Source: a phage
Sequence record: PZ445407.1
DNA length: 47,731 nt
Reading direction: 5' to 3' (one strand)
The notes under the pieces were generated by a model that worked only from the letters and a program-made list of their open reading frames with translations, was not told where the DNA came from and ran no database searches. How positions within the stretch are numbered: position 1 is the first letter of the stretch; the number at the start of each line of letters is the position of its first letter. Positions 1 through 47,731 of this stretch are shown in pieces. A program made the translations under genes and the position numbers.

Positions 1-41
1 GCACGAATTGCCAAACACAAAAGCCACGGATGGCGTATAGT
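1..41 (+). promoter_or_regulatory. palindrome-type promoter (half-palindrome completed by window end) for 72..449
   Basis: gcacgaattgcca + 22 bp + TATAGT (36..41); near-identical to copy at 43335. Confidence 0.5.
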
Positions 42-71
42 CACTTCACACAAACGAGAGGAGTTAAACAA

Positions 72-449
72 ATGACAAACACTTCAAAGGCTGTATATAT
101 TGGGAACAATGATGACAAGTATTGTGGATTCACTCCGGGAAATGAATACGACGTTTGCGTTCTTGATGATGGATTTTTGGGGGTTTACGATGATGATGAT
201 ATTCACCGTTGCATTAAAAACGGAACGTTACACGAGTTCAAGCTCGATTGTGAGGATGGTCATTTTGTAACTGAGACTGAGTGCGAAGTCATGCCGCCTA
301 TCGACAATAAAAAGCCAGAGCTTAGATATTACATAAATGGTCATGAGGTTGACATGGTTGAGTTCGGAAATGTGCGCTATACTGTAGAGCAGCTTAATGA
401 GGATGGCGTAAAATGCGACACAATCAAGTTCGAAGTAAAATTCGAGTAA
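72..449 (+). CDS. hypothetical protein, moron-like; paralog of 12195..12569
   Basis: ATG at 72 in frame with ORF 30..449, RBS gagg upstream; preceded by palindrome promoter; C-terminus (KFEVKFE) matches 12195..12569 (DFEVSFE). Confidence 0.5.
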   Translation: MTNTSKAVYIGNNDDKYCGFTPGNEYDVCVLDDGFLGVYDDDDIHRCIKNGTLHEFKLDCEDGHFVTETECEVMPPIDNKKPELRYYINGHEVDMVEFGNVRYTVEQLNEDGVKCDTIKFEVKFE

Positions 450-470
450 CCACAAAAGCTGTGATAAACT

Positions 471-494
471 AGCCCCTGTTATGGGGCTTTTTAT
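471..494 (+). terminator. rho-independent terminator
   Basis: hairpin agcccc-tgttat-ggggct + T-run. Confidence 0.5.
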
Positions 495-505
495 TGGAGA
501 AAAAC

Positions 506-1768
506 ATGGTCAAGACAGACAGCTACGCCAATATCTTTCTCGGCGGCAGTGATGGTAGTGAGATTTACGGGAGTTTGCAGAATCAGGCGCCCACAATTCT
601 GGCCTCGCTTTATGCTGACAATGCTCTGGTGCGTCGAATTATCGACACAATACCGGAGACAGCATTAGCGGCAGGATTCCACATTGATGGTATTGATGAT
701 GAATCTGAATTCTGGTCTCACTGGGACGACCTGGAGCTAACAAAACACATCAATGAAGCCTGGTCATGGGCTAGATTGTTCGGTGGGTCTGCAATTGTTG
801 CTATCGTTAAGGACAATAGGGCGCTAACAAGTCCGGTCAGAGAAGGTGCCGAGCTTGAAACGGTTCGCGTTTACGACCGCACACAAGTAAAAGTACAAAC
901 CCGAGAGGAGAACCCACGCAACTCGCGCTTTGGTAAGCCGCTAACCTATCGCATCACAACAAACGAAAGCGATATGTTCTATGATGTGCATTACACCCGC
1001 ATTCACATCATTGACGGAGAGCGAGTCCCTAACGTAATGCGCCGTCAGAATGATGGATGGGGTAGAAGTGTTCTTTCTAGTGATATTCTTGACTCAATCA
1101 AGGATTACACGAACTGTGAACGACTTGCCACGCAATTACTGAAGCGTAAGCAGCAGGCGGTCTGGAAGGCGAAAGGGCTTGCTGAGTTGTGTGATGACAG
1201 CGAAGGATTTGGCGCGGCTCGATTACGACTTGCTCAGGTTGATAACAATAGTGGCGTGGGTCAGGCAATTGGCATTGACGCAGAATCTGAAGAGTACAGT
1301 GTTCTAAACTCTGATATCGGCGGGATTGATGCGTTTCTGGATAAGAAGTTTGACCGAATCGTTGCTCTGAGCGGCATTCATGAAATCATCCTGAAGAACA
1401 AGAACGTTGGCGGTGTATCTTCAAGCCAGAATACGGCGCTTGAGACATTCCACAAGCTGGTTGACCGCAAGCGTAATGCTGAGCTTCTGCCTATTCTTGA
1501 GTTCTTAATCCCGTTCATTGTTAATGTAGAAGAATGGTCAGTAGAGTTTAATCCTTTAGCGCAGGAGTCGAGCAAGGATAAAGCAGAGATTCTGGAGAAG
1601 AACGTAAACAGCATTGCGGCACTAATTGCAGCTGGCGCTATGGATACTAACGAGGCTCGTGATACACTACGAACTATCGCACCAGAGATTAAGATTGGTG
1701 ATGGAAATATCGAACCTGAAGAACCATCTAAGGAAGTAATCGCGACGACAGAGGAATCTAATGAATGA
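506..1768 (+). CDS. portal protein (putative)
   Basis: ~420 aa ORF immediately downstream of the terminase genes across the junction; ATG 506 preceded by ggag; position-based call. Confidence 0.55.
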   Translation: MVKTDSYANIFLGGSDGSEIYGSLQNQAPTILASLYADNALVRRIIDTIPETALAAGFHIDGIDDESEFWSHWDDLELTKHINEAWSWARLFGGSAIVAIVKDNRALTSPVREGAELETVRVYDRTQVKVQTREENPRNSRFGKPLTYRITTNESDMFYDVHYTRIHIIDGERVPNVMRRQNDGWGRSVLSSDILDSIKDYTNCERLATQLLKRKQQAVWKAKGLAELCDDSEGFGAARLRLAQVDNNSGVGQAIGIDAESEEYSVLNSDIGGIDAFLDKKFDRIVALSGIHEIILKNKNVGGVSSSQNTALETFHKLVDRKRNAELLPILEFLIPFIVNVEEWSVEFNPLAQESSKDKAEILEKNVNSIAALIAAGAMDTNEARDTLRTIAPEIKIGDGNIEPEEPSKEVIATTEESNE

Positions 1769-1801
1769 TGAATTTGATGGATTTTAGTGAGGAGAATTGG
1801 G

Positions 1802-7723: not shown

Positions 7724-7729
7724 ATTGCA

Positions 7730-7772
7730 TAGCATTTTTTGATAAAGCATTAATTTAATCTTCCTGTATAGT
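7730..7772 (+). promoter_or_regulatory. palindrome-type promoter (TAGCA-N5-TGATA, 22-bp spacer, -10 TATAGT)
   Basis: Direct read; leader TACCTCATCGAAACGAAA. Confidence 0.55.
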
Positions 7773-12120: not shown

Positions 12121-12121
12121 A

Positions 12122-12164
12122 TAGCACTTTTTGCTAAACAGTATTGACATGGATGTCGTATATT
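12122..12164 (+). promoter_or_regulatory. palindrome-type promoter (TAGCA-N5-TGCTA, 22 bp, TATATT)
   Basis: Direct read. Confidence 0.55.
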
Positions 12165-12629: not shown

Positions 12630-13385
12630 ATGTTAAGTCCAAAGTTTGAAAATCAGTTGCAAAGCCTTTTCCCTGGCGAGATTGTAACTCTAATCCAGGT
12701 TGACGGCACGTCCTTCGGAAGTCTCGTTTACAATTTCCACAATGAGAACATTTCATACACACCTGAAGAAATCATGCTAGCCCAAATGAATGGTGAGCCA
12801 CTACCAGAGAAAACCATCACCTTTCGTGGTGAAGAGTACGGCCCAAGACCTTTTGGAATCTCGGGCATAAATATGACCTCTGACGGCAAGGCAAACAAGG
12901 TTACGCTAACAGTATCAAACGTAGACCAGCGCATTAGCGCATTGATTCGCACATACAACGGACTTGTTAAAGCTAAGGTTACCATCTGGATTACTACGCG
13001 AGATAACATCAATGAAGACGGAAGCATTGCTGATGGGGATTATCGCAGATTCGTTTACTTCATTGAGCGACCAAAGCAGGTTGACTACAAGACGGCATCA
13101 TTTGAGCTAAGCAGCCCGATGGATATGGATGGTATTTACATTCCTGCTCGACTTGTTCAGTCTGTTTGCTATTTCGCCTCTAGGGGTTGGTATCGTAGCG
13201 GTAATGGTTGCGCTTATGCTGGAAACAGATACTTCAACAAGGATGACGAGCCAGTATCAGACCCTTCATTAGACTTCTGCGCAGGAACTGTTAACAGTTG
13301 CAAGCTTAGATTTGGTGAGAATAATCAGTTAGATTTCGGCGGTTGCGCTGCAGCAAGCCTTCAGGCTAAAGCTAATCAATCATAG
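12630..13385 (+). CDS. minor tail protein (lambda L-like, putative)
   Basis: Cys-cluster near C-terminus (CYF..GNGCAYAG..CAGTVNSC..GGC); RBS context identical to portal (ttattggagaaaa). Confidence 0.55.
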   Translation: MLSPKFENQLQSLFPGEIVTLIQVDGTSFGSLVYNFHNENISYTPEEIMLAQMNGEPLPEKTITFRGEEYGPRPFGISGINMTSDGKANKVTLTVSNVDQRISALIRTYNGLVKAKVTIWITTRDNINEDGSIADGDYRRFVYFIERPKQVDYKTASFELSSPMDMDGIYIPARLVQSVCYFASRGWYRSGNGCAYAGNRYFNKDDEPVSDPSLDFCAGTVNSCKLRFGENNQLDFGGCAAASLQAKANQS

Positions 13386-13430
13386 CACTTTTTGTTAAGA
13401 GGATGGTCCAGACTTGGGCTATCCTATAAT
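13383..13430 (+). promoter_or_regulatory. palindrome-type promoter variant (TAGCA-N5-TGTTA, 27-bp spacer, TATAAT) for HNH gene
   Basis: Direct read; spacer longer than family norm. Confidence 0.4.
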
Positions 13431-20101: not shown

Positions 20102-20144
20102 ATAGTATCGCATCCTTGCGAGCAGTGTTTAGCAATTCGTGCTA
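20102..20144 (-). promoter_or_regulatory. palindrome-type promoter on minus strand for small peptide and Cor-like operon
   Basis: Reverse complement reads TAGCA cgaat TGCTA + 22 bp + TACTAT + leader TACTCCATCGAAACGAAAC. Confidence 0.5.
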
Positions 20145-20200
20145 TTGCATACACGTAACCGTTGTAACTCGATGTATACAATCTCATCCGCGAAAAATGA

Positions 20201-20526: not shown

Positions 20527-20570
20527 ATTGGCAAAACCAATTGGACTGGCTACGGTGCCGAATATATAGT
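20527..20570 (+). promoter_or_regulatory. promoter with variant palindrome ATTGG-N5-CCAAT, 23 bp, -10 TATAGT
   Basis: Same geometry and leader as family but different half-site. Confidence 0.4.
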
Positions 20571-21771: not shown

Positions 21772-21772
21772 A

Positions 21773-21815
21773 CAGCACAAATTGCTAAAGACAAAATTAA
21801 AAGGTGGGGTATGAT
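21773..21815 (+). promoter_or_regulatory. palindrome-type promoter (CAGCA-N5-TGCTA, 22 bp, TATGAT) for erf
   Basis: Direct read; leader TACCCCATCAAAAACGAACGAGG. Confidence 0.5.
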
Positions 21816-25098: not shown

Positions 25099-25120
25099 TG
25101 TAAAGTCTCCATTTGTAAAA

Positions 25121-25135
25121 TAGCACAGATTGCTA
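25121..25135 (-). promoter_or_regulatory. palindrome TAGCA cagat TGCTA only ~22 nt upstream of tail fiber start codon (operator-like position)
   Basis: Perfect palindrome but no room for the usual spacer, -10 and leader. Confidence 0.4.
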
Positions 25136-25162
25136 AGTTGGATTGTAGCAGCTTTCAGACAT

Positions 25163-26107: not shown

Positions 26108-26190
26108 ATCAATCTATCTCTTAACAAATAAAAAAAGGATGTACCGATTATGGCACATCCCATTACTTACTCTTTAACTTTTCGTGCTAC

Positions 26191-26379: not shown

Positions 26380-26428
26380 TTTGTATATCCTTGTTTAGTT
26401 TATCTGCTTTCGATGTGTTAACTATACC

Positions 26429-26914
26429 TCATCCATGAGATATGTCTTTAGCTTTTCGTGCTGCTTCGTTAGCAGCCTTAATTTTACGCCATGATCGACA
26501 TTCTGGTTTGGTTGCTAACTCGGATTCAGTAACCACACGCAGCATGTGACGCTTTTTGCAACGCAGCGTAAGAGGCTTTCCATTGCCGTCGAATTGCAGA
26601 TCTGGTCGGCAGAATGTAGCGCGAAAACCTTCTCCGGTTCGTTTGTAGTAGTTGTGAGATAGCTGAGCGCCACGTGCAGAGATCATGCCACGCTTAAACC
26701 ACTCTTCTACAGCCTGCGGCGTCACCTTTAACTGCTTTGCGATATTCGCCTTTGTGCCGAAGAAATCAAGGAGCATCTCAAGCCGCGCGCGTAGCCCAGC
26801 CCTTACCTCATCTTTCAAAACGTAGTAACCTGAAGGTCGTTTCCGCTGCTTTTTATCTTCAGTGCGGATGGTTCCGTTATTGCCGTTAGTGGTTCGCTTA
26901 TCAACTGCATTCAT
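26429..26914 (-). CDS. putative HTH DNA-binding regulator
   Basis: Segment IAKQLKVTPQAVEEWFKRGMIS resembles a helix-turn-helix; highly basic protein; divergent from helicase promoter. Confidence 0.45.
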   Translation of the reverse strand: MNAVDKRTTNGNNGTIRTEDKKQRKRPSGYYVLKDEVRAGLRARLEMLLDFFGTKANIAKQLKVTPQAVEEWFKRGMISARGAQLSHNYYKRTGEGFRATFCRPDLQFDGNGKPLTLRCKKRHMLRVVTESELATKPECRSWRKIKAANEAARKAKDISHG

Positions 26915-26926: not shown

Positions 26927-26968
26927 ATAGCATTTTTTGTTAAAAGTCATTCTGATTTGATGGTAGTA
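26927..26968 (+). promoter_or_regulatory. palindrome-type promoter for helicase (TAGCA-N5-TGTTA, ~21 bp, TAGTAT)
   Basis: Direct read; palindrome lies 13 bp from start codon of divergent HTH gene. Confidence 0.45.
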
Positions 26969-26971
26969 TTG

Positions 26972-27001
26972 TACTCAATTAAACGCTACAAGACAATTTT
27001 T
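26972..27001 (-). promoter_or_regulatory. sigma70-like promoter on minus strand (-35 TTGTCT, 17 bp, -10 TACAAT) for HTH/primase/tail fiber operon
   Basis: Read from reverse complement of divergent intergenic region; coordinates approximate. Confidence 0.35.
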
Positions 27002-29011: not shown

Positions 29012-29431
29012 ATGAATATTACAGACAAAGTTGATTACATTGAGTTTTACCCGGGCCCGGTTAAGTCATGCCCCAAAGAGGACGACGAACAGATCTTTTG
29101 CTCTGATTGGGTTAAGTACCATTATCCTCAGATTATCTATTGGCATACCGTTAATGAGGGGAAGAAATCAATGTGCGCAGCCAGAAAGGATGCAGCAAAA
29201 GGCCTCCTTAAAGGCGTATCAGACTGCCTATTTCTAATACCTGAACCATTGCGAGGAAGGTATCCATTTGGCGCAATAGAGCTAAAGAGGGCAGGGAAAA
29301 CGCAGGCTAGTCCAGTCAGCGAAGATCAGAAGGCATTCCTGAAGAGCGTAAGAGAATCAGGCGGCTTCTCGGCTGTGGCCTACGGTCGTGAAGGTTTTCT
29401 TGCGGCGTTCAGAGAAATGATTTCAAAATAG
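29012..29431 (+). CDS. VRR-NUC-like nuclease (putative)
   Basis: D/E/K residues in DCLFLIPEP...GAIELK arrangement; start choice 29003 or 29012. Confidence 0.45.
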   Translation: MNITDKVDYIEFYPGPVKSCPKEDDEQIFCSDWVKYHYPQIIYWHTVNEGKKSMCAARKDAAKGLLKGVSDCLFLIPEPLRGRYPFGAIELKRAGKTQASPVSEDQKAFLKSVRESGGFSAVAYGREGFLAAFREMISK

Positions 29432-29471
29432 CACTAATTGCTAAAGAGATTTCGCAGGGATGCGATATAGT
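29429..29471 (+). promoter_or_regulatory. palindrome-type promoter (TAGCA-N5-TGCTA, 22 bp, TATAGT)
   Basis: Direct read; palindrome includes stop codon of upstream gene. Confidence 0.55.
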
Positions 29472-30075: not shown

Positions 30076-30272
30076 TTGGCATCTGCGTAAAAACAAATGG
30101 AAGTTTTACTTTATTCGATGAGTACGAGATTAATTTTGGCGATGATTTTTATTCAGACAAGATTGTAGTAATGAGCGATGATGGATGGAATTACATTATT
30201 GATTATCAAGGTGATGGCTACTACGGGTGCGTAGACGCGAAAGGAAAAGAAGTTAGTTTCTTGGTTGAATAG
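30072..30272 (+). CDS. hypothetical protein
   Basis: ORF track; stop TAG forms next promoter palindrome. Confidence 0.4.
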   Translation: MIGICVKTNGSFTLFDEYEINFGDDFYSDKIVVMSDDGWNYIIDYQGDGYYGCVDAKGKEVSFLVE

Positions 30273-30312
30273 CATTTTTTGTTAAAACTAAAATCCAGGG
30301 ATGGATTATATT
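30270..30312 (+). promoter_or_regulatory. palindrome-type promoter (TAGCA-N5-TGTTA, 22 bp, TATATT)
   Basis: Direct read. Confidence 0.55.
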
Positions 30313-32181: not shown

Positions 32182-32182
32182 G

Positions 32183-32225
32183 TAGCACTTTTTGCCTAAA
32201 GGATGCCGTAGAAATACGGCATAAT
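32183..32225 (+). promoter_or_regulatory. palindrome-type promoter variant (TAGCA-N5-TGCCTA)
   Basis: Direct read; one-base insertion in right half-site. Confidence 0.4.
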
Positions 32226-35666: not shown

Positions 35667-35740
35667 TACTTCTCTCCGTGTTGTTTCTGAGCGGCCATTA
35701 TATCAACGGCCGCCTATAATTCATTATCAATTTGTGCTAT

Positions 35741-36476: not shown

Positions 36477-36519
36477 AATATACATGAAAAGCCCCGAAGG
36501 GATTTAGCGATTCGTGCTA
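36477..36519 (-). promoter_or_regulatory. palindrome-type promoter on minus strand with terminator-like hairpin in spacer
   Basis: Reverse complement: TAGCA cgaat CGCTA + 22 bp (contains cccttcgggg hairpin) + TATATT. Confidence 0.45.
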
Positions 36520-36665
36520 TTGCGTGCTTTTTCTATCGCCCTTAGCATAATCTCATGACTATCAAGCAAGTCTTCTCGGAACCAATCCCCGCATGGCCAG
36601 CCCTTTCCGCTGTAGGCGCTGATGACCTCCAGATCGAAATAATTTATCTCAGATGGTAATAGCAT
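36504..36665 (-). CDS. hypothetical small protein (~53 aa)
   Basis: Hand-translated; stop embedded in promoter palindrome. Confidence 0.25.
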   Translation of the reverse strand: MLLPSEINYFDLEVISAYSGKGWPCGDWFREDLLDSHEIMLRAIEKARNSTNR

Positions 36666-37313: not shown

Positions 37314-37357
37314 ACTATACCCTCGCCAGACCATAACGTCATTAACAAAAAGTGCTA
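37314..37357 (-). promoter_or_regulatory. palindrome-type promoter on minus strand for the 33655..37286 accessory operon
   Basis: Reverse complement: TAGCA ctttt TGTTA + ~22 bp + TATAGT + leader ...CATCAACAACGAGGGGG. Confidence 0.5.
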
Positions 37358-37373
37358 TTCGTCAGATTTATGG

Positions 37374-37917: not shown

Positions 37918-37946
37918 TTGATAACATGTAACCTCGATGATATTAT
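37918..37946 (+). promoter_or_regulatory. sigma70-like promoter (-35 TTGATA, 17 bp, -10 TATTAT) for 37987..38508
   Basis: Hexamers read directly. Confidence 0.45.
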
Positions 37947-39047: not shown

Positions 39048-39067
39048 AGCCAATCCTGAACGGTGAA

Positions 39068-39110
39068 TAGCAATAATTGCTAAACAATTGATCGGGTAGT
39101 CAGCTATGAT
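39068..39110 (+). promoter_or_regulatory. palindrome-type promoter (TAGCA-N5-TGCTA, 22 bp, TATGAT)
   Basis: Direct read; leader TACCCCATCTACAACAAAGAGG. Confidence 0.55.
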
Positions 39111-39134
39111 TACCCCATCTACAACAAAGAGGAA

Positions 39135-39901: not shown

Positions 39902-40201
39902 TTGGCGGTTAGCGAATGCGAATCGGCACGCGATCGCAAGGTGGCTGTTTGCTATTGCGTTGGTGGCAATGAGTTCATCAATGGTTGCGAATGCGAGTAT
40001 GAAGTTGATGAGCGCGAGGCGGGGTGTGAGCCGCGCATTATTCATATCGTACAAGATGCATTCGTCTCTGACTTAAAAGGTGATCACCGCTGGGAATCTG
40101 TTAAGTTTGGAAAGCTTAACATTGATGGAAAAGATCTTGGCGATGCATACGCAATCATAAATCCTGATGGCGGCGTAGTGGCTCAGTTCTACATCAAATA
40201 G
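39902..40201 (+). CDS. hypothetical Cys-rich protein (non-ATG start, boundary uncertain)
   Basis: No in-frame ATG; stop TAG embedded in promoter palindrome. Confidence 0.25.
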   Translation: MAVSECESARDRKVAVCYCVGGNEFINGCECEYEVDEREAGCEPRIIHIVQDAFVSDLKGDHRWESVKFGKLNIDGKDLGDAYAIINPDGGVVAQFYIK

Positions 40202-40241
40202 CACGATTTGTTAAAAGGGGATTCATCCTGACTGGTATAAT
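40199..40241 (+). promoter_or_regulatory. palindrome-type promoter (TAGCA-N5-TGTTA, 22 bp, TATAAT)
   Basis: Direct read. Confidence 0.55.
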
Positions 40242-40274
40242 CCCCACATCAACCACACGAATGGAAGTTAACAA

Positions 40275-41567: not shown

Positions 41568-41568
41568 A

Positions 41569-41610
41569 TAGCACGAATCGCCAAAGCCGCTCCGGCGGGT
41601 TTTGTTATAG
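41569..41610 (+). promoter_or_regulatory. palindrome-type promoter variant with terminator hairpin in spacer (TAGCA-N5-CGCCA, TATAGT)
   Basis: Direct read; hairpin ccgc tccg gcgg + T-run inside spacer. Confidence 0.4.
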
Positions 41611-41643
41611 TTAGTTCACACCAAACGAGAGGAAGTAGAAGAA

Positions 41644-41835: not shown

Positions 41836-41836
41836 G

Positions 41837-42055: not shown

Positions 42056-42189
42056 TTTACGTTCACACTTACTACACTGCAAAGTTTAATAGCGTGAAGA
42101 ATGTTAGTGTTCACGAAAGCTACGAGAGCGCAAAAGCTCAATGGTTGGTTCTCGGCGGTGATATTAATTCATATAGAGTCGATGAATAG
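42052..42189 (+). CDS. hypothetical small protein (45 aa)
   Basis: Hand-translated; ATGA overlap. Confidence 0.25.
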   Translation: MIYVHTYYTAKFNSVKNVSVHESYESAKAQWLVLGGDINSYRVDE

Positions 42190-42228
42190 CAAGAATTGCT
42201 AAAACAGCATTGGGGTAATTTGTTATAG
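42186..42228 (+). promoter_or_regulatory. palindrome-type promoter (TAGCA-N5-TGCTA, 22 bp, TATAGT)
   Basis: Direct read; leader TACCCCATAGAAACGAATGAGG. Confidence 0.55.
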
Positions 42229-42259
42229 TTACCCCATAGAAACGAATGAGGAAGAAGAG

Positions 42260-42651: not shown

Positions 42652-42700
42652 CGCGCCTAAAACGCACTATGACGAAAGATAATTTAAGTAAGGTGATTCT

Positions 42701-42871
42701 ATGATTAAAGCTGTTTTTGTTGCTGAGGATGACGATTATCTAGGCCTAAAGACACATGACGTGATCTATGTTGAACCATTAAAAAATGGTGATGGCTATA
42801 TCTACACTGATAAATTTGGCGTGCGTCTTTTTATTGAGCGATGGGAAATTGAGGAGATTAGTGGTGAGTAA
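42701..42871 (+). CDS. hypothetical small protein (56 aa)
   Basis: Hand-translated; RBS aaggtg. Confidence 0.3.
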   Translation: MIKAVFVAEDDDYLGLKTHDVIYVEPLKNGDGYIYTDKFGVRLFIERWEIEEISGE

Positions 42872-42986
42872 CGAAAGCCCCGTAGAGTGGTGCAAGAGAA
42901 TGCAGGACGAGGCCAAGACGAGCGAAGAGGCAATGGCTTACTACGAGCTTGCGAAAATGTGGATGGAGCGGGAGAAGAAGGAATGA
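42864..42986 (+). CDS. hypothetical small protein (GTG start)
   Basis: RBS gaggag; overlaps neighbours. Confidence 0.2.
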   Translation: MSNESPVEWCKRMQDEAKTSEEAMAYYELAKMWMEREKKE

Positions 42987-43126
42987 GCTTCACTGAATAT
43001 GTTATCGCATGTGAGAGAATTGTGTTTGACATGAAAACCTTTCACTGGTTCATCATTAAGGATTTAATCAAGCCTTATAAGCAAGGCGTTACGCCAGAAC
43101 AGTTTGTTAAGTCATTCTATAAATAA
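42983..43126 (+). CDS. hypothetical small protein (47 aa)
   Basis: ATGA overlap. Confidence 0.25.
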   Translation: MSFTEYVIACERIVFDMKTFHWFIIKDLIKPYKQGVTPEQFVKSFYK

Positions 43127-43152
43127 TCTTATCAGAAAGAGAGAGAAACAAA

Positions 43153-43350
43153 ATGTGGATCAACATTAAAGAAGAGATGCCTGGCAGCGAGGATGTTTTG
43201 GTTTATTGCTCAGACACAAGAGAGCAGATGGTTGGGTTCCACAAGGGGAGAGGTCTTTTTCAGTTCTTTTTCATGAATGGGGTGGAGGGAGTTTGCAAAC
43301 CAACGCATTGGATGCCGCTACCAGAAGGTCCAGATAGCACGAATTGCTAA
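43153..43350 (+). CDS. hypothetical protein
   Basis: ORF track, RBS agagagag. Confidence 0.4.
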   Translation: MWINIKEEMPGSEDVLVYCSDTREQMVGFHKGRGLFQFFFMNGVEGVCKPTHWMPLPEGPDSTNC

Positions 43351-43377
43351 ACACGCTCGCCACGGATGGCATATAAT
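43335..43377 (+). promoter_or_regulatory. palindrome-type promoter (TAGCA-N5-TGCTA, 22 bp, TATAAT)
   Basis: Direct read; near-duplicate of junction copy. Confidence 0.55.
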
Positions 43378-43407
43378 TACCCCATCAACACAACGAGAGA
43401 TTGAGAG

Positions 43408-43647
43408 ATGTTTGGATTAAATGAAGCGATGTTTAATGCTGTAAAGCGCCAGGCTAAAAAGCTCAACGATAAGTATGAGACACTAAGCAAACTGGACCGC
43501 AAGAATGACAAGCTAGTTGCTGGAGTTATAACTGAGATTTGGCAGCCCGTTTCTACGGTAATCAGCAGAGATCGCTTTGTGTGGGTAGCTGGTTACTTGC
43601 GAGGCCGGGTTGGTCACGACGAGAATGGGAATAGCCTTTATGAGTAA
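43408..43647 (+). CDS. hypothetical protein
   Basis: Behind conserved promoter/leader. Confidence 0.4.
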   Translation: MFGLNEAMFNAVKRQAKKLNDKYETLSKLDRKNDKLVAGVITEIWQPVSTVISRDRFVWVAGYLRGRVGHDENGNSLYE

Positions 43648-43747
43648 GTTTATTGATTGTGTTATTTACGCGTGGTGCTTGGCGCTGGCTTCAGCCTCGG
43701 TTATGTTAATAATTGCTGCGATTATGATGATGGGTGGGTATGTATGA
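43640..43747 (+). CDS. hydrophobic micro-ORF (35 aa, MSKFIDCVIYAWCLALASASVMLIIAAIMMMGGYV)
   Basis: Hand-translated; overlaps both neighbours. Confidence 0.3.
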   Translation: MSKFIDCVIYAWCLALASASVMLIIAAIMMMGGYV

Positions 43748-43932
43748 GTAATTGCAACAAGCACCACTATTACTACGCATACGAGTCGAAATTGGAGAAG
43801 TCTGACATTGATGGGATTAGATATGGATGGGCTGACGCAACGGCGCCATGCATCTTCGTAGGAATGAAAATGGCATTCTACGTTTGCAGTAAGTGCCACA
43901 ACATACTTATCACCGAGAGGCTGAGTAAATGA
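43744..43932 (+). CDS. zinc-ribbon-like protein (paralog 1; C.KHHYYY...C.KCH)
   Basis: Cys/His spacing shared with 43994..44230. Confidence 0.4.
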   Translation: MSNCNKHHYYYAYESKLEKSDIDGIRYGWADATAPCIFVGMKMAFYVCSKCHNILITERLSK

Positions 43933-43997
43933 GTGAACTAACAATCTGGTTTATCGCAGGGCTGGTTACTTGGGCTTACTTTATGGAGGCAGCATGA
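43929..43997 (+). CDS. hydrophobic micro-ORF (22 aa, MSELTIWFIAGLVTWAYFMEAA)
   Basis: Hand-translated; ATGA overlaps at both ends. Confidence 0.3.
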   Translation: MSELTIWFIAGLVTWAYFMEAA

Positions 43998-44230
43998 GAA
44001 CATTGAGGCAGATTTTAAACGGATGCAAGAAGCATCATTACACTTACTTTCGTGACATTAAATGGTTCGAGGATGCTAATCGTTTAGATGGCTACAAGAC
44101 AAAGTTAATATGCAAGAAGTGCCACCATGTTGAGAACAGTAAGGTAGATATGATGATTTGCCGTAGCACACTCGACGAAGTTCATTATGCAAAGGCCAGA
44201 AGGCTCAAAAAACTAGTTGCCAGACCGTAA
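43994..44230 (+). CDS. zinc-ribbon-like protein (paralog 2)
   Basis: CKKHHYTY...CKKCH pattern; RBS ggagg. Confidence 0.4.
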   Translation: MRTLRQILNGCKKHHYTYFRDIKWFEDANRLDGYKTKLICKKCHHVENSKVDMMICRSTLDEVHYAKARRLKKLVARP

Positions 44231-44244
44231 TTGTTAAAAAGAAC

Positions 44245-44273
44245 TTGCACCACTGACCGGAATTATATAATAT
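44245..44273 (+). promoter_or_regulatory. sigma70-like promoter (-35 TTGCAC, 17-bp spacer, -10 TAATAT) driving non-coding region and tRNA
   Basis: Hexamers read directly from sequence. Confidence 0.4.
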
Positions 44274-44279
44274 TAACCA

Positions 44280-44640
44280 CGTAGACAAACGAGGCCACTA
44301 AGTGGCAACGGCGCACGGAGCGCACTACGCGGTAAGTCCGCTGCTCATTAAGTAGCGTATGCGGCGCATCTGGTCCATGAGGATAAGGCGTAAACCTCAA
44401 CCAACTTCCCAGTATGGGCTTTATTCCCTTAGGGACTTGAAGACCTAGCGCAAATAGGCCGACATGGTCCAAGTCGAAAAAACTGACCAGACCTGAGCAC
44501 GTCATTAAAAGAGCTTTCTGTTAATCGGTCGTTTCAGGCGACCCCGGAGCCGTAACCGGGATTTATATGGGTGGCATTTATGTCATCTTGTAAATTGGTC
44601 GTAAAGGCGACCCCGGAATCATAACCGGGACTCATTCAAA
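44280..44640 (+). ncRNA. candidate structured non-coding RNA / tRNA precursor leader with duplicated double-hairpin unit
   Basis: No convincing ORF; GC-rich; two ~34-nt direct repeats (44527..44562 and 44596..44630) each forming two 5-bp hairpins. Confidence 0.3.
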
Positions 44641-44718
44641 GCTCTGCTAGCTCAATTGGATAGCAGCAACGACCTTCTAAGTCGTAGGTTACTGGTTCGA
44701 ATCCAGTGCGGAGCGCCA
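44641..44718 (+). tRNA. tRNA-Arg (anticodon UCU), CCA encoded
   Basis: Acceptor stem GCTCTGC/GCGGAGC, anticodon stem ACGAC/GTCGT with loop CTTCTAA, canonical T-arm GGTTCGAATCC, 3' GCCA. Confidence 0.8.
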
Positions 44719-44745
44719 AATTAAACCAATAATCCTGGGGGATTT

Positions 44746-44928
44746 ATGAAAACTGTAACATTCATCGTAAAAGATTCAGGGACGGGAACCGTTCAGAAGT
44801 TTAACGCGAAATTAACCTACAACAAAGGTGGAAGTAAAGAAGTTAGAGGCTCACTGGGCGGCGTGATGGTTGAGGCTCGACTCCCGATTATCTACCCTGA
44901 TGACGAGCGCCGCAATGTGGGACGTTAA
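44746..44928 (+). CDS. hypothetical protein
   Basis: ORF track; RBS gggg. Confidence 0.35.
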   Translation: MKTVTFIVKDSGTGTVQKFNAKLTYNKGGSKEVRGSLGGVMVEARLPIIYPDDERRNVGR

Positions 44929-45097
44929 ACTTTCAATCAGACTAATGGGCCGAAGTTGCAAGAATTGCACTCAAGATTATATCGCGTCAGTTGCCGCAAT
45001 CAGCGCTGAGGATGCGGTAGCGAAAGTAAAAGAGTTGTCAGGCGCTGATCCAGACACTCACAAATTCCTGGTAGCTTACGTTCGTGAGCGAAAGTAA
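44915..45097 (+). CDS. hypothetical protein
   Basis: ATG 44915 in frame of track ORF 44870..45097. Confidence 0.35.
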   Translation: MWDVKLSIRLMGRSCKNCTQDYIASVAAISAEDAVAKVKELSGADPDTHKFLVAYVRERK

Positions 45098-45141
45098 AAA
45101 GTGTTATACCCTCGTTAAGTTCCGTTTCTCTCGTTGTTTTT

Positions 45142-45165
45142 AGCCCTCGCTTGAGGGCTTTTTTT
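45142..45165 (+). terminator. rho-independent terminator
   Basis: agccctc-gctt-gagggct + TTTTTTT. Confidence 0.6.
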
Positions 45166-45175
45166 CGCCCGCATG

Positions 45176-45204
45176 TTGACAACAATATATAGGTGCATTA
45201 GTAT
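45176..45204 (+). promoter_or_regulatory. sigma70-like promoter (-35 TTGACA, 17 bp, -10 TAGTAT)
   Basis: Hexamers read directly. Confidence 0.45.
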
Positions 45205-45245
45205 TAACTCATCGGGGCGACCCACTAACCAGAAGGAGATTCAAA

Positions 45246-45482
45246 ATGATTACATTAAAAGCAATTCACAAAGACGGTAGCGAGCAGGTTTTTGAAGTTA
45301 AGAATTTTGGCTACAGAGCTACGCAGAACCGTATTGATGCTGTTGATTGCGATTGCCAACCTTTCAGTATTTACCTTAATGATGACTCAGTTGCTATTGT
45401 GTACGCAATGAACTCAAGAGGGGCAACTATTGGTAAATACTCTCTTATTGAGTCGGTAGGACTACGAGATTACATATCTTAA
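45246..45482 (+). CDS. hypothetical protein
   Basis: Behind canonical promoter, RBS aaggag; terminator follows. Confidence 0.45.
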   Translation: MITLKAIHKDGSEQVFEVKNFGYRATQNRIDAVDCDCQPFSIYLNDDSVAIVYAMNSRGATIGKYSLIESVGLRDYIS

Positions 45483-45486
45483 ATTA

Positions 45487-45510
45487 GAGCCCCTTAATTG
45501 GGGCTTTTTT
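45487..45510 (+). terminator. rho-independent terminator before terminase genes
   Basis: agcccc-ttaatt-ggggct + TTTTTT. Confidence 0.55.
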
Positions 45511-45555
45511 ACGCCTGTAACATGGTATAATATAACATCAACAAAGGAGGATTAA

Positions 45556-46062
45556 ATGAGCAAAGCAGCATTAAAGATGGGTGAGGGAAATTTCAAGGCG
45601 CTTTACAACAAGAAGTATGGCGATATTGCGATGGTGGCTATTAACCGCAAGTACACGCCTGAGGAAGTTTTCGATTTCGCTGTTCGATACTTCTCCTGGG
45701 CTGAGACTGAGGCAATCAAAGCAATTGAGACGGCGGCATTCCAGGGTGTGGTTAGTGAGAGCCTTGTGCACAAGCCTCGAGTATTCACATTAACCGGGCT
45801 GGCGCTCTTTATGGGTGTTAATATCAATAGATTCGCACGCTGGCGTACTGAGGCTGGTTACTCTGATGTGATGGAATTCATTGATAACGTAATCTACGAG
45901 CAGAAATACCAGCTTGGCGTTGCTGGTATCATCAACTCCACCATCGTGGGGAAAGAATTGGGAATTGATAAGCCGCAGGAGATTACCATCAGCAACAACT
46001 CCACAGCCAACGACGTTGATAGCATGAAGGAAGCGCTGGAATCTGTTATTAGTAAGCTGTGA
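45556..46062 (+). CDS. terminase small subunit (putative)
   Basis: ~168 aa gene directly upstream of large terminase; RBS aaggagg. Confidence 0.55.
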   Translation: MSKAALKMGEGNFKALYNKKYGDIAMVAINRKYTPEEVFDFAVRYFSWAETEAIKAIETAAFQGVVSESLVHKPRVFTLTGLALFMGVNINRFARWRTEAGYSDVMEFIDNVIYEQKYQLGVAGIINSTIVGKELGIDKPQEITISNNSTANDVDSMKEALESVISKL

Positions 46063-46080
46063 TAAAACGAGGGTATAACA

Positions 46081-46176
46081 ATGAAAGGCTTGATTAAACT
46101 ATTCATGATGTATTATCTATTAACTAGCGTATCTCTTTGTGTCTTTATGTTGGTGGTTAAATTATGGCTAATTTAG
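46081..46176 (+). CDS. hydrophobic micro-ORF (31 aa) overlapping terminase large start
   Basis: Hand-translated; RBS gaggg. Confidence 0.2.
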   Translation: MKGLIKLFMMYYLLTSVSLCVFMLVVKLWLI

Positions 46177-47731
46177 TATGGGAAGAAATGACCATTCAGG
46201 AAAAGATGGCCGTCAAGGCGATATCAGAACACAGCTTCGAGGGCTTTCTTCGTTGCTGGTTCCAAATCACACAGGGCGAGCGATACATCCCTAACTGGCA
46301 TCACAAATATCTATGCAGAATCATTGACGAGATTATTGCAGGTGAGCGCAAGGACACCATCATCAACATAGCGCCGGGCAGCGGAAAGACAGAAATAGCT
46401 TCAATTCACTTTCCTGCCTACTCTATGGTTAAGCTGAAGAAGGTGCGGAACCTTAATATCTCCTTTGCCGACTCATTGGTTAAGCGTAACTCCAAGCGCG
46501 TACGTGACCTTATCAAATCTCAAGAATTTCAATCACTCTGGCCATGCAAGTTTGGTACGTGCAAAGACGATGAGCTTCAGGTTCTTGACGAGAGTGGCAA
46601 GGTTAGATTTGAGTCAATATCAAAGGCGGCTGGAGGTCAGATTACAGGCGCTCGAGGTGGCTATATAACAGAAACATACAGCGGGGCAGTTCTATTAGAT
46701 GATTTCGACAAGCCGGCCGACATGCTATCTCAGGTCTACCGAACTAACAATCACGTAATGCTTAAGAACACGATTCGCTCACGTCGAGCTAGTTCTGTAA
46801 AAGGCAAGGCGACACCAATCATTTCGATACAGCAGCGATTGCACGTCAATGACTCAACCTGGTTCATGATGGAAGGAGGGATGGGTATTGATTTCGATCT
46901 GATTAAGATACCAGCATTAGTTACTGAGGATTACATCGATTCACTTCCTGACTGGATTAAAGAGCAGTTTGCGGAAGACGTTTTGAGTGGTGAGTACATT
47001 GAGCGAGATGGGGTAAAGTACTATAGCTACTTCCCTAAAAAGGAATCCGTGCACGACCTAGTTGCGATGTGGGATAGTGACCCGTACACTTTCCTTAGCC
47101 AGTATCAACAGGAACCTGTAGCTCTCGGCGGCAATCTGATTAACGTGGATTGGTTCCAGCGCCTTAGTGACACATTCAGACCTCCAGCTAAGTATGATTA
47201 TCGATTCATCACGGCTGATACGGCGATGACAACTAAAAGCTATAGTGACTTCTCTGTGTTGCAACTTTGGGGCTATAAGGATGCCAGGATTTACCTTCTT
47301 GACCAACGCAGAGGCAAATGGGAGGCACCAGAGTTACAGGCTGAATTGCTTGAGTTTGAGAAGTCCGCAAGGGCCACCAGTCAGCAAAATGGAATTCTTC
47401 GAAAGATTATCGTCGAGAAGAAAGCATCTGGTATCGGTCTTATTCAATCAGCAAGTCGAGTTATGCGAACGCCAGTCGAGCCATACGTTCCGGATAACGA
47501 CAAGCTGACCAGGGTAATGAGTGCGCTACCGCAGATTAAGGCCGGTAACGTCGTTCTTCCAGGGTCAGCGACATGGCTAAATGGTTTGCTTACGGAGATT
47601 GCATCTTTCACAGCAGACGACTCACACAAGCATGACGACCAAATTGACTGCCTAACAATGGCAATCAACCTGGTACTTAACATTGCAGATGACCCTAAAT
47701 CGCGGATGTTACGCCTTGCAGGAATTAAATA
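46164..47731 (+). CDS. terminase large subunit; CDS wraps the window junction (stop TAG = 47730, 47731 and base 1)
   Basis: Walker A-like NIAPGSGKTE, Asp-rich nuclease-type C-terminal region; open to window end. Confidence 0.8.
   Translation, partial: MANLVWEEMTIQEKMAVKAISEHSFEGFLRCWFQITQGERYIPNWHHKYLCRIIDEIIAGERKDTIINIAPGSGKTEIASIHFPAYSMVKLKKVRNLNISFADSLVKRNSKRVRDLIKSQEFQSLWPCKFGTCKDDELQVLDESGKVRFESISKAAGGQITGARGGYITETYSGAVLLDDFDKPADMLSQVYRTNNHVMLKNTIRSRRASSVKGKATPIISIQQRLHVNDSTWFMMEGGMGIDFDLIKIPALVTEDYIDSLPDWIKEQFAEDVLSGEYIERDGVKYYSYFPKKESVHDLVAMWDSDPYTFLSQYQQEPVALGGNLINVDWFQRLSDTFRPPAKYDYRFITADTAMTTKSYSDFSVLQLWGYKDARIYLLDQRRGKWEAPELQAELLEFEKSARATSQQNGILRKIIVEKKASGIGLIQSASRVMRTPVEPYVPDNDKLTRVMSALPQIKAGNVVLPGSATWLNGLLTEIASFTADDSHKHDDQIDCLTMAINLVLNIADDPKSRMLRLAGIK

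Follow-up and report, generated by a model that had tools for sequence, protein, structure and literature searches.

An oriented, marbox-matching box in the -35 position of putative repeated promoters of a T1-like phage

What do the near-identical repeats ahead of so many genes of a T1-like phage do, and which protein reads them? We analysed sequence record PZ445407.1 over its whole length of 47,731 nucleotides (the window), a complete T1-like genome (Drexlerviridae, Braunvirinae) that is circularly permuted, as ...AAATA|GCACGAATTGCC joins its end to its start. A preliminary description had proposed a promoter family of about 19 copies, built on a palindrome in place of a -35 hexamer. All of its sites exist: TAGCANNNNNTGCTA (TAGCA-N5-TGCTA) has 7 exact matches in the window versus 0.02 expected, and 17 with at most one mismatch versus 1.9 expected, and the copy near position 1 is merely split by the window ends, its box continuing across the junction. 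We add an 18th strong copy at 35725 (minus strand), together with two degenerate ones that keep the full geometry, at 26190 (minus strand; primase) and 26464 (minus strand; a 62-aa ORF). These 18 strong and 2 degenerate copies share a single fixed layout, each aimed at a downstream gene, with the start codon at a fixed distance and in the same orientation for 20/20. They are given below with strand, box, box-to-hexamer spacing, -10 hexamer and start codon.

47729..47731 joined to 1..41 (+): cassette 1, box ATAGCACGAATTGCCAAACA across the junction, 18 bp, TATAGT (36-41); start codon 72; Martin 14/14, Grainger 10/10; TerL TAG stop inside the box
7729..7772 (+): box ATAGCATTTTTTGATAAAGC, 18 bp, TATAGT; start codon 7806
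12121..12164 (+): box ATAGCACTTTTTGCTAAACA, 18 bp, TATATT; start codon 12190/12195; Martin 14/14
13382..13430 (+): HNH endonuclease gene, box ATAGCACTTTTTGTTAAGAG; hexamer either TATCCT, 18 bp away and conserved in DTL and Rtp, or TATAAT, 23 bp away; start codon 13453
20102..20145 (-): box ATAGCACGAATTGCTAAACA, 18 bp, TACTAT; start codon 20062; Martin 14/14
21772..21815 (+): Erf-like gene, box ACAGCACAAATTGCTAAAGA, 18 bp, TATGAT; start codon 21845
26147..26190 (-): degenerate, primase gene, GTAGCACGAAAAGTTAAAGA, 18 bp, CATAAT; PWM 17.3
26421..26464 (-): degenerate, within the regulator ORF at its 3' end, GCAGCACGAAAAGCTAAAGA, 18 bp, TATAGT; start codon 26379; PWM 15.3
26927..26969 (+): helicase gene, box ATAGCATTTTTTGTTAAAAG, 17 bp, TAGTAT; start codon 27016
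29428..29471 (+): ATAGCACTAATTGCTAAAGA, 18 bp, TATAGT; start codon 29508
30269..30312 (+): ATAGCATTTTTTGTTAAAAC, 18 bp, TATATT; start codon 30343
32182..32225 (+): GTAGCACTTTTTGCCTAAAG, 18 bp, CATAAT; 8-bp spacer hairpin; start codon 32267
35697..35740 (-): DNA helicase, ATAGCACAAATTGATAATGA, 18 bp, TATAAT; start codon 35666
36477..36520 (-): ATAGCACGAATCGCTAAATC, 18 bp, TATATT; start codon 36450; Martin 14/14
37314..37358 (-): ATAGCACTTTTTGTTAATGA, 19 bp, TATAGT; start codon 37286
39067..39110 (+): ATAGCAATAATTGCTAAACA, 18 bp, TATGAT; start codon 39141
40198..40241 (+): polynucleotide kinase, ATAGCACGATTTGTTAAAAG, 18 bp, TATAAT; start codon 40275
41568..41611 (+): ATAGCACGAATCGCCAAAGC, 18 bp, TATAGT; terminator-like spacer hairpin; start codon 41644
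42186..42229 (+): ATAGCAAGAATTGCTAAAAC, 18 bp, TATAGT; hairpin arms TGGGGTAA/TTACCCCA on either side of the -10; start codon 42260
43334..43377 (+): ATAGCACGAATTGCTAAACA, 18 bp, TATAAT; start codon 43408; Martin 14/14

Each cassette runs from a 20-bp box through 18 bp to a sigma70 -10 hexamer (TATAnT), then 6 nt to CA at the inferred +1; a leader of some 24 nt, which includes a Shine-Dalgarno sequence, leads to the start codon, and the complete cassette measures about 75 nt. The proposed common geometry holds: the palindrome end lies 22 bp (21-23) from TATAnT, which amounts to 18 bp when counted from where the 20-bp box ends. Within the window, a conserved CA(T) follows 7 nt past the hexamer in 14/20 sites, and the distance from hexamer to start codon is about 31 nt. 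This layout is kept in 112 sites of seven Drexlerviridae genomes, and another 419 sites from 79 viral loci show it too; the box-to-hexamer spacing is 18 bp in 96 of the 112, and among the sites of the 79 loci 271 have 18 bp, 82 have 17 bp and 18 have 19 bp. TGn precedes the hexamer in 43/112 sites. A -35 element, sought at 17-bp spacing from the -10, gave a mean TTGACA match of only 1.68/6, which supports the suggestion that a protein site replaces it ahead of a good sigma70 -10. The box cassettes thus look like promoters with a protein site centred near -41/-42 in place of the -35.

The leader fared differently. TACCCCATC, put forward as conserved, is not fixed and covaries with the spacer as a hairpin 3' arm, so that the ‘conserved leader’ is largely the 3' arm of covarying hairpins nested within the promoters; the portion truly conserved is CAtcgAAAc.A...GAGG. 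As for the upstream TAG stop, one that belongs to a credible upstream gene lies inside the box at 6 of 18 sites (13385, 29431, 30272, 40201, 42189 and the TerL stop across the window junction).

The element itself is an oriented 20-bp box, ATAGCAC-nnW-TTG-YT-AAA, rather than a palindrome. Its flanks read A..AAA on the same strand, with A1 and A17-A18 non-palindromic, and only 66 of the 112 sites (59%; seven genomes) show complementarity at pair 4/14, without compensating change, because an invariant G4 faces either C or T at position 14. Positions G4, C5, A6 and G13 are invariant across these sites and N8, W9, W10 and Y14 (C66/T39) are degenerate; a ‘TTT’ class (CACTTTTTGCTAAAA) accounts for 51/112 and a ‘GAA’ class, which has no T-run, for 35/112. 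The orientation of the box strictly follows the direction of transcription. The earlier interpretation is partly supported: it holds as to an apparent promoter architecture without a -35, but the site is not a symmetric dimer operator.

An oriented site at this position recalls the marbox, 5'-gcannwwntgnnaaa-3', which is non-palindromic and, at class II promoters, lies forward and overlaps the -35 (PMC12052159). Class II sites cluster near -41, with a canonical -10 and start site and no -35 (mean 1.9/6 matches to TTGACA; PMC10268841), and RamA binds at about -41 on micF (PMC8811837). The 15-bp E. coli consensus gcannwwntgnnaaa is matched at 10/10 positions by 13 of the 18 window sites and by 87/112 sites of the seven genomes, and 4/18 window sites fit AYnGCACnnWnnRYYAAAYn at 14/14; the window genome holds 14 perfect marbox matches versus 0.57 in shuffles. 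The degenerate positions of the box are those of the marbox. On this evidence the phage box corresponds to a consensus marbox, forward, overlapping the -35 position and centred near -41; the identity, orientation, spacing, -35 absence and family-wide conservation can all be read directly from the sequences. At T2, A3, T11 and T15 the phage box allows less variation than the marbox, which gives it its 5+5 palindrome; a second, dimeric reader could account for this extra constraint, as could mere common descent of the copies. The repeat is already published: a 21-nt ‘direct repeat’ of phage TLS, described in 2024 without an assigned function and with mention of T1, Rtp and Rogue1, is the same element.

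We put at about 0.5 the probability that the cassettes are class II promoters and that marbox-binding proteins of the host activate them. A host protein would occupy the box and replace -35 recognition through contacts with sigma70 region 4 and the RNA polymerase alpha-CTD, thereby recruiting host RNA polymerase to almost every transcription unit of the phage. MarA, SoxS and Rob, AraC-family activators with two HTHs, each bind the marbox as a monomer, and RamA is a marbox-binding activator in Klebsiella and Salmonella; candidates here would be Rob, a constitutive protein that bile salts or dipyridyl activate, or MarA/SoxS under antibiotic or oxidative stress. Binding, activation, start sites and the protein acting in vivo are what we infer, and we found no start-site mapping, binding or host-mutant results for these promoters in the literature. 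Weighing against host activators, unstressed cells contain little MarA and SoxS, and most of their Rob is aggregated. T1-like phages nevertheless grow fast in ordinary laboratory culture, and the model therefore needs one of three conditions: consensus sites of high affinity, able to draw on a small active pool; promoters with useful basal activity; or activation triggered by the phage. The same boxes are carried by Vc1 (labelled V. cholerae) and Motto (labelled P. aeruginosa); if these labels are right and those hosts are without marbox proteins, the model fails, although the Motto label is doubtful because its GC is 45%. If the model is true, the phage may switch on its genes through the bacterium's own antibiotic-stress regulators.

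Some promoters lack a box, and some boxes lack a promoter. A few palindrome-free sigma70-like promoters, as had been suggested, do exist, including that of the regulator gene; in the preliminary description such promoters pointed to two temporal classes, which stay a conjecture here.

20541..20570 (+): box-free sigma70-type relative of the family, TTGGAC-18-TATAGT, same leader (TAAATCATCGAAAGC)
37918..37946 (+): box-free, TTGATA-17-(TG)TATTAT, preceding the 37987 gene (DUF7174)
45176..45204 (+): box-free, TTGACA-17-TAGTAT, upstream of the 45246 gene
26968..26996 (-): box-independent promoter of the regulator gene, TTGTCT-17-TACAAT
25120..25139 (+): box lacking promoter geometry, flanked by the primase terminator and the tail-fibre gene start (25098, -)
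26429..26914 (-): regulator, a 161-aa Cro-like HTH protein of the T1 gp23 / Rtp52 / TLS gp57 family

The first of these had been taken, at 20527, for a half-site variant; it is instead a sigma70-type promoter with the family leader, which on a sequence reading would drive ATG 20608 and an exonuclease VIII-like gene (the PHROG match begins at residue 59 of ORF 20434), and it is comparable with TLS P51. The operator-like copy at 25121 is indeed a box, but one with neither a usable -10 nor a downstream gene; boxes are similarly placed at DTL 39980, Rtp 33762 and T1 34902.

The Cro-like protein is the only recognisable transcription factor of the phage: Pfam detected no other DNA-binding domain, phmmer against all six-frame ORFs found no AraC-family protein (best E-value 0.26), and the product of 31051-32181, whose N-domain had been proposed as an HTH, is a metallophosphoesterase / DNA-repair exonuclease in which no HTH was detected. 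The -10 of the regulator gene overlaps the divergent helicase -10 by 2 bp and the helicase-promoter box lies in the transcribed leader of the regulator gene, an arrangement that looks like an autoregulatory switch, which speaks against the host model, and is the same as TLS P57/DR11.

The Cro-like protein, proposed earlier as a possible binder, could itself be the activator, a reading we consider unlikely but the main rival. As a dimer on the TAGCA-N5-TGCTA core at -42, it would activate delayed-early, middle and late promoters in class II fashion, being made first from its own sigma70 promoter and later shutting that promoter off, and the marbox match would be coincidence or the legacy of a captured host promoter. 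Its fold matches dimeric all-alpha Cro (Xfaso1 Cro 3bd1, N15 Cro 6on0; target-normalised TM-score 0.72), a half-site separation of 10 bp suits an HTH dimer, and the extra invariance at T2, A3 and T15 makes the palindrome. Its gene, present in 829 phage records and 7/7 genomes compared, has the box-independent promoter and box-containing leader described above, and a host stress signal would be unnecessary. Yet the recognition helix (residues 66-75) is its least conserved structured segment (mean top-residue frequency 0.49) and differs outright among the window, T1, TLS and Vc1, whose boxes are identical; overall identity among homologues ranges from 38 to 94%, yet their phages all carry an invariant box. 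The protein thus stays a candidate, though a weaker one than first sight suggests. The asymmetry of the box (pair 4/14, flanks A1/A17-A18) and its orientation fixed to transcription also argue against a dimer, the 10/10 marbox match, forward orientation and micF-identical spacing go unexplained, and a gene between primase and helicase could instead encode an origin-binding protein or a repressor.

Phage-encoded promoter-specificity factors are common, and a small unrecognised protein, from among the conserved early ORFs without a detectable domain, might read the box or remodel RNA polymerase as T4 MotA/AsiA do. Small ORFs of unknown function occur in 7/7 genomes (30465-30713, 33655-33990, 35741-36118, 42052-42189, 43408-43647 and 44870-45097), but we detected no DNA-binding, sigma-like, AsiA-like or MotA-like domain in them, most themselves lie behind box promoters, which poses a bootstrap problem, and marbox identity is left without explanation; we regard this as improbable. 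A factor-free reading, in which the box is an A/T-rich UP-like element for alpha-CTD that boosts -10/extended -10 promoters, was already raised by the TLS authors and would fit the TGn before many hexamers and the T-run-NNN-AAA pattern of the ‘TTT’ class, resembling the UP consensus reportedly that of Estrem et al. 1998. It seems quite improbable, as the invariant positions are G4, C5, A6 and G13 and not A/T tracts, the ‘GAA’ class has no T-run, the box AAA is about 7 bp nearer the -10 than in UP elements, and strict 20-bp conservation is typical of a sequence-specific protein site. The TLS authors also proposed stoperators as a possibility, and boxes acting negatively, as stoperator-like roadblocks or as decoys titrating host marbox proteins, would accord with the few that lack promoter geometry, at late-gene translation starts or antisense (window 25120; T1 8362, 25021 and 15086(-); TLS 24908 and 15042(-)), and with about 20 consensus sites per genome copy, which could sponge MarA/SoxS/Rob. 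An exact 18-bp spacing and gene co-orientation at 96/112 boxes would be needless for either purpose, however, and neither an integrase nor an immunity repressor was detected in this virulent phage; this is the most improbable reading of those considered.

Activation by host marbox-binding proteins, the reading we prefer, has a counterpart in the host. E. coli K-12 micF, a class II MarA/SoxS/Rob promoter, reads ACAGCACTGAATGTCAAAAC-18 bp-TAGAAT-7 nt-+1 against its annotated RNA start, the same layout as the phage cassettes, whose counterpart is ATAGCACGAATTGCTAAAAC-18 bp-TATAAT; the E. coli mar marbox, ATGCCACGTTTTGCTAAATC, has TTGCTAAA in common with the phage box.

Seven exact copies of TAGCANNNNNTGCTA are present in the window where 0.02 would be expected, and 17 copies (1.9 expected) when at most one mismatch is allowed. 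Printing all sites with their flanks recovered every one listed in a preliminary description, and the printed sites followed the single layout proposed there, of a palindrome (TAGCA-N5-TGCTA), 22 bp, TATAnT and a start codon. Beyond that list lie a copy at 35725 (-) and two others, degenerate in sequence but with the right spacing, at 26190 (-) and 26464 (-). CA(T) is conserved 7 nt past the hexamer and is followed by a purine-rich ribosome-binding site and the start codon. Transcription is predicted to begin at this CA, near 48, 7779, 12171, 21822, 29478, 30319, 39117, 40248, 41618, 42236 and 43384 on the plus strand and near 20095, 26140, 26414, 36470 and 37307 on the minus strand. We refer to the unit of box (an oriented 20-bp element containing the palindrome), 18-bp spacer, -10 hexamer, leader and start codon as a cassette; all 20 cassettes in the window (18 strong and 2 degenerate) are co-oriented with their start codon, which lies 69–89 nt from box position 1. 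The TAG stop codon said to be often part of the palindrome was credible as the upstream gene's stop at 6 of the 18 strong sites, and the supposed half-site variant at 20527 is instead a sigma70-type promoter (TTGGAC-18-TATAGT) that shares its leader with the family. Some ORF calls (20434-20802, 30-449 and 29460-29702) begin too early, with cassettes and ribosome-binding sites indicating starts at 20608, 72 and 29508, respectively; the PHROG match of ORF 20434 starts only at residue 59.

By megablast, the window is placed among T1-like phages, being ~87% identical to Escherichia phage DTL (Drexlerviridae; Braunvirinae) and Veterinaerplatzvirus across the structural half and ~85% identical to the BASEL phages AugustePiccard and JeanPiccard over the rest. 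Joining the window end (...AATTAAATA) to its start (GCACGAATTGCC...) creates one further copy of the repeat, and the TerL frame stops at a TAG spanning the junction 47731/1; this identifies the window as an entire genome of 47,731 bp, circularly permuted, and its cut happens to fall inside a promoter box (window 1 / 47731).

The geometry holds well beyond this genome. We pooled 112 boxes from the window and six other Drexlerviridae genomes (DTL, T1, Rtp, TLS, Vc1 and Motto). The hexamer follows the end of the box after 18 bp in 96 of them, after 17 bp in 9 and after 19 bp in 7, and the commonest hexamers are TATAGT, CATAAT, TATAAT and TATTAT. A further 79 IMG/VR loci, chosen as encoding a homologue of the phage regulator described below (1.45 Mb in total), each hold at least one box; their 419 boxes have a hexamer at 18 bp in 271 cases, at 17 bp in 82 and at 19 bp in 18. 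From hexamer to start codon, the median is 31 nt (interquartile range 30–33), giving a whole unit of ~75 nt. That the box takes the place of a -35 hexamer was borne out, as phage sites match TTGACA at a mean of only 1.68 of 6 positions, and reading TTGCTA/TTGTTA as the -35 was rejected because the spacer would be 22 bp, beyond the sigma70 range. A generic sigma70 consensus scan of 33000-47731 gave no enrichment over shuffles (21 found versus 28.3 expected), so we cite only individually strong box-free promoters.

Alignment of the sites gave the consensus aAATAGCACnnnTTGcTAAA. Across the 112 boxes, G4, C5, A6 and A17 are invariant, position 13 is G in 111 sites and positions 9 and 10 are exclusively A or T. 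The palindrome of the preliminary description is imperfect: pairs 2/16, 3/15, 5/13 and 6/12 are complementary in 89–99% of sites, but pair 4/14 is so in only 59%, and the flanking pairs 1/17 and 7/11 in 0–4%, with A on the same strand at both sides. Position 14, facing the invariant G4, holds C at 66 sites and T at 39, and no compensating change was seen. The element is thus oriented. A terminator hairpin was rejected as a reading of the palindrome, whose stem is A/T-rich, only 5 bp long and not followed by a T-run; the actual hairpins lie downstream, in the spacer.

An oriented, non-palindromic element of this kind is known from the host. The marbox, bound by the AraC-family activators MarA, SoxS and Rob (RamA in relatives), has been given as 5'-gcannwwntgnnaaa-3' by the Grainger laboratory, and in class II promoters it lies forward and overlaps the -35 (PMC12052159). 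Forward sites in Salmonella cluster near -41, and class II promoters there have a canonical -10 and start site with a mean TTGACA match of 1.9 of 6 (PMC10268841); RamA binds on micF at about -41 (PMC8811837). The phage boxes fit this consensus at all 10 specified positions in 13 of the 18 strong window sites and in 87 of the 112 family sites, with 14 perfect 15-bp matches genome-wide versus 0.57 in shuffles. The longer form AYnGCACnnWnnRYYAAAYn is matched at 14 of 14 positions by 4 of the 18. Read against its annotated RNA start, E. coli K-12 micF has ACAGCACTGAATGTCAAAAC, 18 bp, TAGAAT, 7 nt and +1, and a phage cassette has ATAGCACGAATTGCTAAAAC, 18 bp and TATAAT; the two boxes are identical at 14 of 20 positions. 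The mar marbox (ATGCCACGTTTTGCTAAATC) has TTGCTAAA in common with the phage box, where it is the second recognition element (RE2), identical to that of mar. Variation among the phage boxes falls at positions 8, 9, 10, 14 and 20, where the marbox accepts any base or either of two. Positions T2, A3, T11 and T15 are held more tightly in the phage box than in the marbox, which yields the palindrome. Its placement is that of class II sites, overlapping the -35 and centred at about -41 relative to the predicted start, with the 18-bp spacing of micF. In sequence, orientation, spacing and possession of a -10 without a -35, the repeat matches a class II marbox promoter.

The cassettes carry a second layer of conserved structure. 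Changes in the TACCCCATC leader, earlier taken to be conserved, go together with changes in the promoter spacer (covariation). Of the 112 cassettes, 49 contain a perfect inverted repeat of at least 6 bp (~7 expected in shuffles). With stems of at least 5 bp, the arms flank the -10 hexamer at 35 sites (for example GGGGTAA...TATAG TTACCCC; AAGGCCA/TGGCCTT; AGGGGAAT/ATTCCCCT; AAGGCACA/TGTGCCTT), and a GC hairpin lies inside the spacer at 21, in some of which a T-run merges into the hexamer, as in TACCCGCgaaaGCGGGTATTATTGTTTT; such a hairpin could be the terminator of the upstream gene. Examples are as follows.

Window, 42206-42241: nested hairpin
Window, 21792-21827: nested hairpin
Window, 32202-32225: nested hairpin
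T1, 3535: nested hairpin
T1, 4344: nested hairpin
T1, 4864: nested hairpin
TLS, 4061: nested hairpin
TLS, 30222: nested hairpin

The 42-nt cassette core folds at -9.9 kcal/mol versus -4.8 for shuffles (p ~2e-19), and folding is stronger for the sense strand than for its complement (p = 5e-5), a sign that the hairpins form in RNA, on sense transcripts that read through. These hairpins could serve as terminators, 3' stabilisers or processing signals.

We searched for a phage-encoded protein that might read the box. Queried with phmmer against all six-frame ORFs, SoxS and E. coli MarA gave no phage-encoded homologue (best E = 0.26), and Pfam scans of 40 ORFs contained no AraC-type HTH. Across Pfam and PHROGs for the same 40 ORFs, there was no other DNA-binding, sigma-like, AsiA-like or MotA-like domain besides that of a single recognisable regulator, a 161-aa protein encoded at 26429-26914 (T1 gp23, Rtp52, TLS gp57) whose gene family spans 829 phage records. 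The N-domain of the 31051-32181 protein, previously put forward as an HTH, matched only metallophosphoesterase/DNA-repair exonuclease families in Pfam and PHROGs. The regulator's AlphaFold model (pLDDT 87) has a core resembling the all-alpha Cro proteins Xfaso1 Cro and N15 Cro (target-normalised TM-score 0.72); its proposed role as the box reader is weakened by a variable recognition helix. Conservation was scored as mean top-residue frequency per segment over 36 homologues (38–94% identity), and of all the structured segments the recognition helix (residues 66-75) scored lowest, at 0.49. Its sequence is PQAVEEWFKR in the window, NQTVQGWKER in T1, LKTVWGWKER in TLS and VRLTNAYRLR in Vc1, yet the DNA box is identical across these phages, which argues against the HTH reading it; a dimeric Cro/CI-type operator would be expected to have a cognate recognition helix conserved along with it. 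By comparison, the regulator's N-terminal arm (residues 5-25, DKRTxNGNNGTxRGxDKKxRKRP), basic and predicted to be disordered, is nearly invariant (0.83), far better conserved than the protein's own HTH; candidate partners for it are the DNA groove, RNA polymerase or another host protein. All 79 additional loci (50–96% regulator identity) carry the same box, and no lineage was found there in which box and regulator co-diverge, so these loci do not discriminate between readers.

The regulator gene has a box-independent promoter, TTGTCT-17-TACAAT (26996-26968, -), with a box within its transcribed leader. Within 26964-26996, this TACAAT overlaps by 2 bp, face to face, the helicase (+) -10 TAGTAT, so the two promoters should be mutually exclusive, and the same layout is present in TLS (P57/DR11). 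This predicted arrangement has the shape of an autoregulated switch. Another candidate operator for the regulator, CTACA-N2-TGTAG in the non-coding region at ~37.7 kb, was rejected, there being one exact copy, which is not above chance.

We consider the cassettes to be activator-dependent class II sigma70 promoters, with a probability of about 0.8. For the identity of the activator, we put the chance that a host marbox protein acts physiologically at about even. If only a phage protein read the box, then the perfect match, the marbox-like degeneracy, the forward orientation and the micF spacing would amount to three separate coincidences. The Cro-like regulator is the only recognisable phage candidate, and several observations speak for it: its own gene has a box-independent promoter, a box in the leader and an overlapping divergent -10; the box is over-constrained relative to the marbox at positions that produce the palindrome; and, a real physiological caveat for a host activator, MarA and SoxS are scarce without stress and Rob, although its affinity for the box is higher than theirs, is largely aggregated in standard conditions (PMC10268841). 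That Vc1 (labelled Vibrio) and Motto (labelled Pseudomonas) have the same boxes points the same way. The GC content of Motto is 45%, versus ~66% for P. aeruginosa, making its host label doubtful, and near-identical T1-like genomes have been filed in public records under the names of non-enterobacterial hosts (MG065688 etc., Campylobacter phage A110b; PP134917, Pseudomonas phage PsgS01F; ON843697, Motto); such labels seem untrustworthy, and any argument that turns on a host factor has to allow for this. Set against its variable recognition helix, these points leave the Cro-like protein an unlikely activator, and a phage factor that we failed to recognise is less likely still.

Explanations that dispense with an activator fare worse. 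We give little weight to an UP-like element, since G4, C5 and G13 are invariant, the T-run is absent from one third of sites and the box spans about -50 to -31 as against -59 to -38 for the A/T tracts of UP elements. The notion that the boxes are negative elements is likewise given little weight; stoperators in particular were rejected, as sites lie 18 bp before a -10 at gene heads with few exceptions (25120; T1 8362, 25021). 

For activation by a host protein, we tentatively propose, at somewhat less than even odds, that T1-like phages (Drexlerviridae) run most of their transcription from consensus class II marbox promoters, hijacking the host Mar/Sox/Rob regulon of multidrug and bile stress, with ~20 boxes also soaking up its regulators and the Cro-like protein perhaps later reading the palindromic core. 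Under this scheme, a host protein would activate the cassette, and the phage protein would subsequently read the superimposed core, modulating expression or shutting it off; such dual reading would account for a perfect marbox and an imperfect palindrome together. Phage expression would then be strongest in cells with antibiotic or bile defences switched on, in which the receptor of TolC-using relatives would also be raised, and the ~20 high-affinity boxes per genome copy would sequester marbox regulators.

Some boxes lack promoter geometry. The copy noted at 25121 is indeed a box (25120-25139), with no usable -10 or downstream gene; it is flanked by the primase terminator and by the start of the opposite tail-fibre gene, just downstream of a minus-strand TACAAT, and its placement is conserved (DTL 39980, Rtp 33762, T1 34902). 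It may serve for repression or as a promoter of antisense transcripts. Others are found in T1 (8362, 25021, 15086(-), 18850(-)), TLS (24908, 15042(-)), Vc1 (5730(-)) and Motto (5727(-)), some directly before late-gene start codons (terS, J-like tail protein) and others antisense before the major capsid gene; the equivalent places in the window have no box. Two non-coding stretches were also seen. The 630 bp between divergent early gene clusters (37360-37990) contain ATTGCAAT/TTGCA-type repeats, a (TTA)n run and palindromes such as CCTACACTTGTAGG; the region corresponds to the physical ends of the T1 map and may be a pac site, genome end or origin region. Within 44270-44718, ~370 nt upstream of tRNA-Arg(TCT) (44641-44718) hold two copies of GGCGACCCCGGA(G/A)(C/T)C(G/A)TAACCGGGA hairpins, with a TATAAT at ~44266; Rfam yielded only the tRNA there.

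T1 belongs to the original set of T phages, yet little has been learnt of how its transcription is organised: genome papers on the family report only 3–10 promoters. Those on T1-like genomes other than TLS report 5–10 sigma70 promoters and do not mention the repeat. In the searchable literature, we found no start-site maps or transcriptomes for Drexlerviridae (the lone transcriptomics paper concerns a T5-like phage) and no link of the marbox or MarA/SoxS/Rob to phage promoters or T1-like phages. The class II marbox reading supplies ~20 promoters per genome and a concrete mechanism: the cassettes are apparently class II promoters that depend on an activator, repeated along the genome of a virulent phage, and would borrow a host stress regulon. 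Were MarA, SoxS or Rob the activator, a virulent phage family would have its expression wired to the antibiotic, oxidative and bile stress response, phage therapy might work better on mar-constitutive multidrug-resistant strains or with inducers, and there would be a bearing on gut phage ecology and on how phages gain promoters without encoding a sigma factor or RNA polymerase. Were the Cro-like protein the reader, it would be an activator encoded by the phage and acting at a site that imitates a box of a host regulon. As promoter parts, the cassettes are, in addition, compact, portable and possibly inducible.

Among phage systems, the middle promoters of T4 share the logic of a sigma70 -10 with an activator box in place of the -35. 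They differ in that the MotA box, TGCTT, is centred at -30, with 11–13 bp to the -10, and its use requires the phage proteins MotA and AsiA, whereas the box here lies 10 bp further upstream; a MotA-type promoter was rejected, as TGCT is at least 22 bp from the -10 and early ORFs have no MotA/AsiA domain by Pfam. The Mor/C-dependent promoters of Mu and Ogr-dependent promoters of P2 also lack a -35, with the activator upstream of or over it, but their activators are phage-encoded and their dyad sites unrelated to the marbox. T4-type phages have PeSL (promoter-early stem-loop) modules, many combinations of promoter and hairpin before small early ORFs that are a plausible substrate for shuffling; those are ordinary sigma70 early promoters, whereas here a marbox stands in for the -35, with hairpin and -10 interleaved. 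The stoperators of mycobacteriophage L5 lie inside transcribed stretches, where the immunity repressor binds them and elongation is blocked; the sites here are locked to a -10 in a virulent phage. What the two share is many oriented copies of one asymmetric site across a phage genome (PMC11447400).

The closest precedent is the 2024 re-annotation of TLS, which lists only three promoters in total and describes a 21-nt direct repeat, aaATAGCACnnnTTGnTAAAA, at 21 locations, along transcription and ~76 nt before start codons, also stated to be present in T1, Rtp and Rogue1 and suggested to comprise stoperators, enhancer-binding sites or UP elements (PMC11447400). The TLS direct repeats (DR1-18) are the same element by consensus, orientation and distance to start codons, and our window/family PWM recovers them. 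The repeat itself was already known, with its function left open; the fixed 18-bp link to a -10, the marbox identity and the nested hairpins are not in that paper (PMC11447400) or, as far as we could find, elsewhere in the searchable literature. Class II MarA/SoxS/Rob (RamA) promoters, including micF, are alike in their forward 20-bp marbox, 18 bp to the -10, centre at about -41 and lack of a -35. They differ in being scattered among stress genes, whereas the phage has ~20 copies in 48 kb that would drive most transcription units, with boxes nearer the consensus and extra constraint at T2, A3, T11 and T15; to the host design, the phage adds a leader of fixed length and nested hairpins, and for its boxes binding and activation by marbox proteins are predicted.
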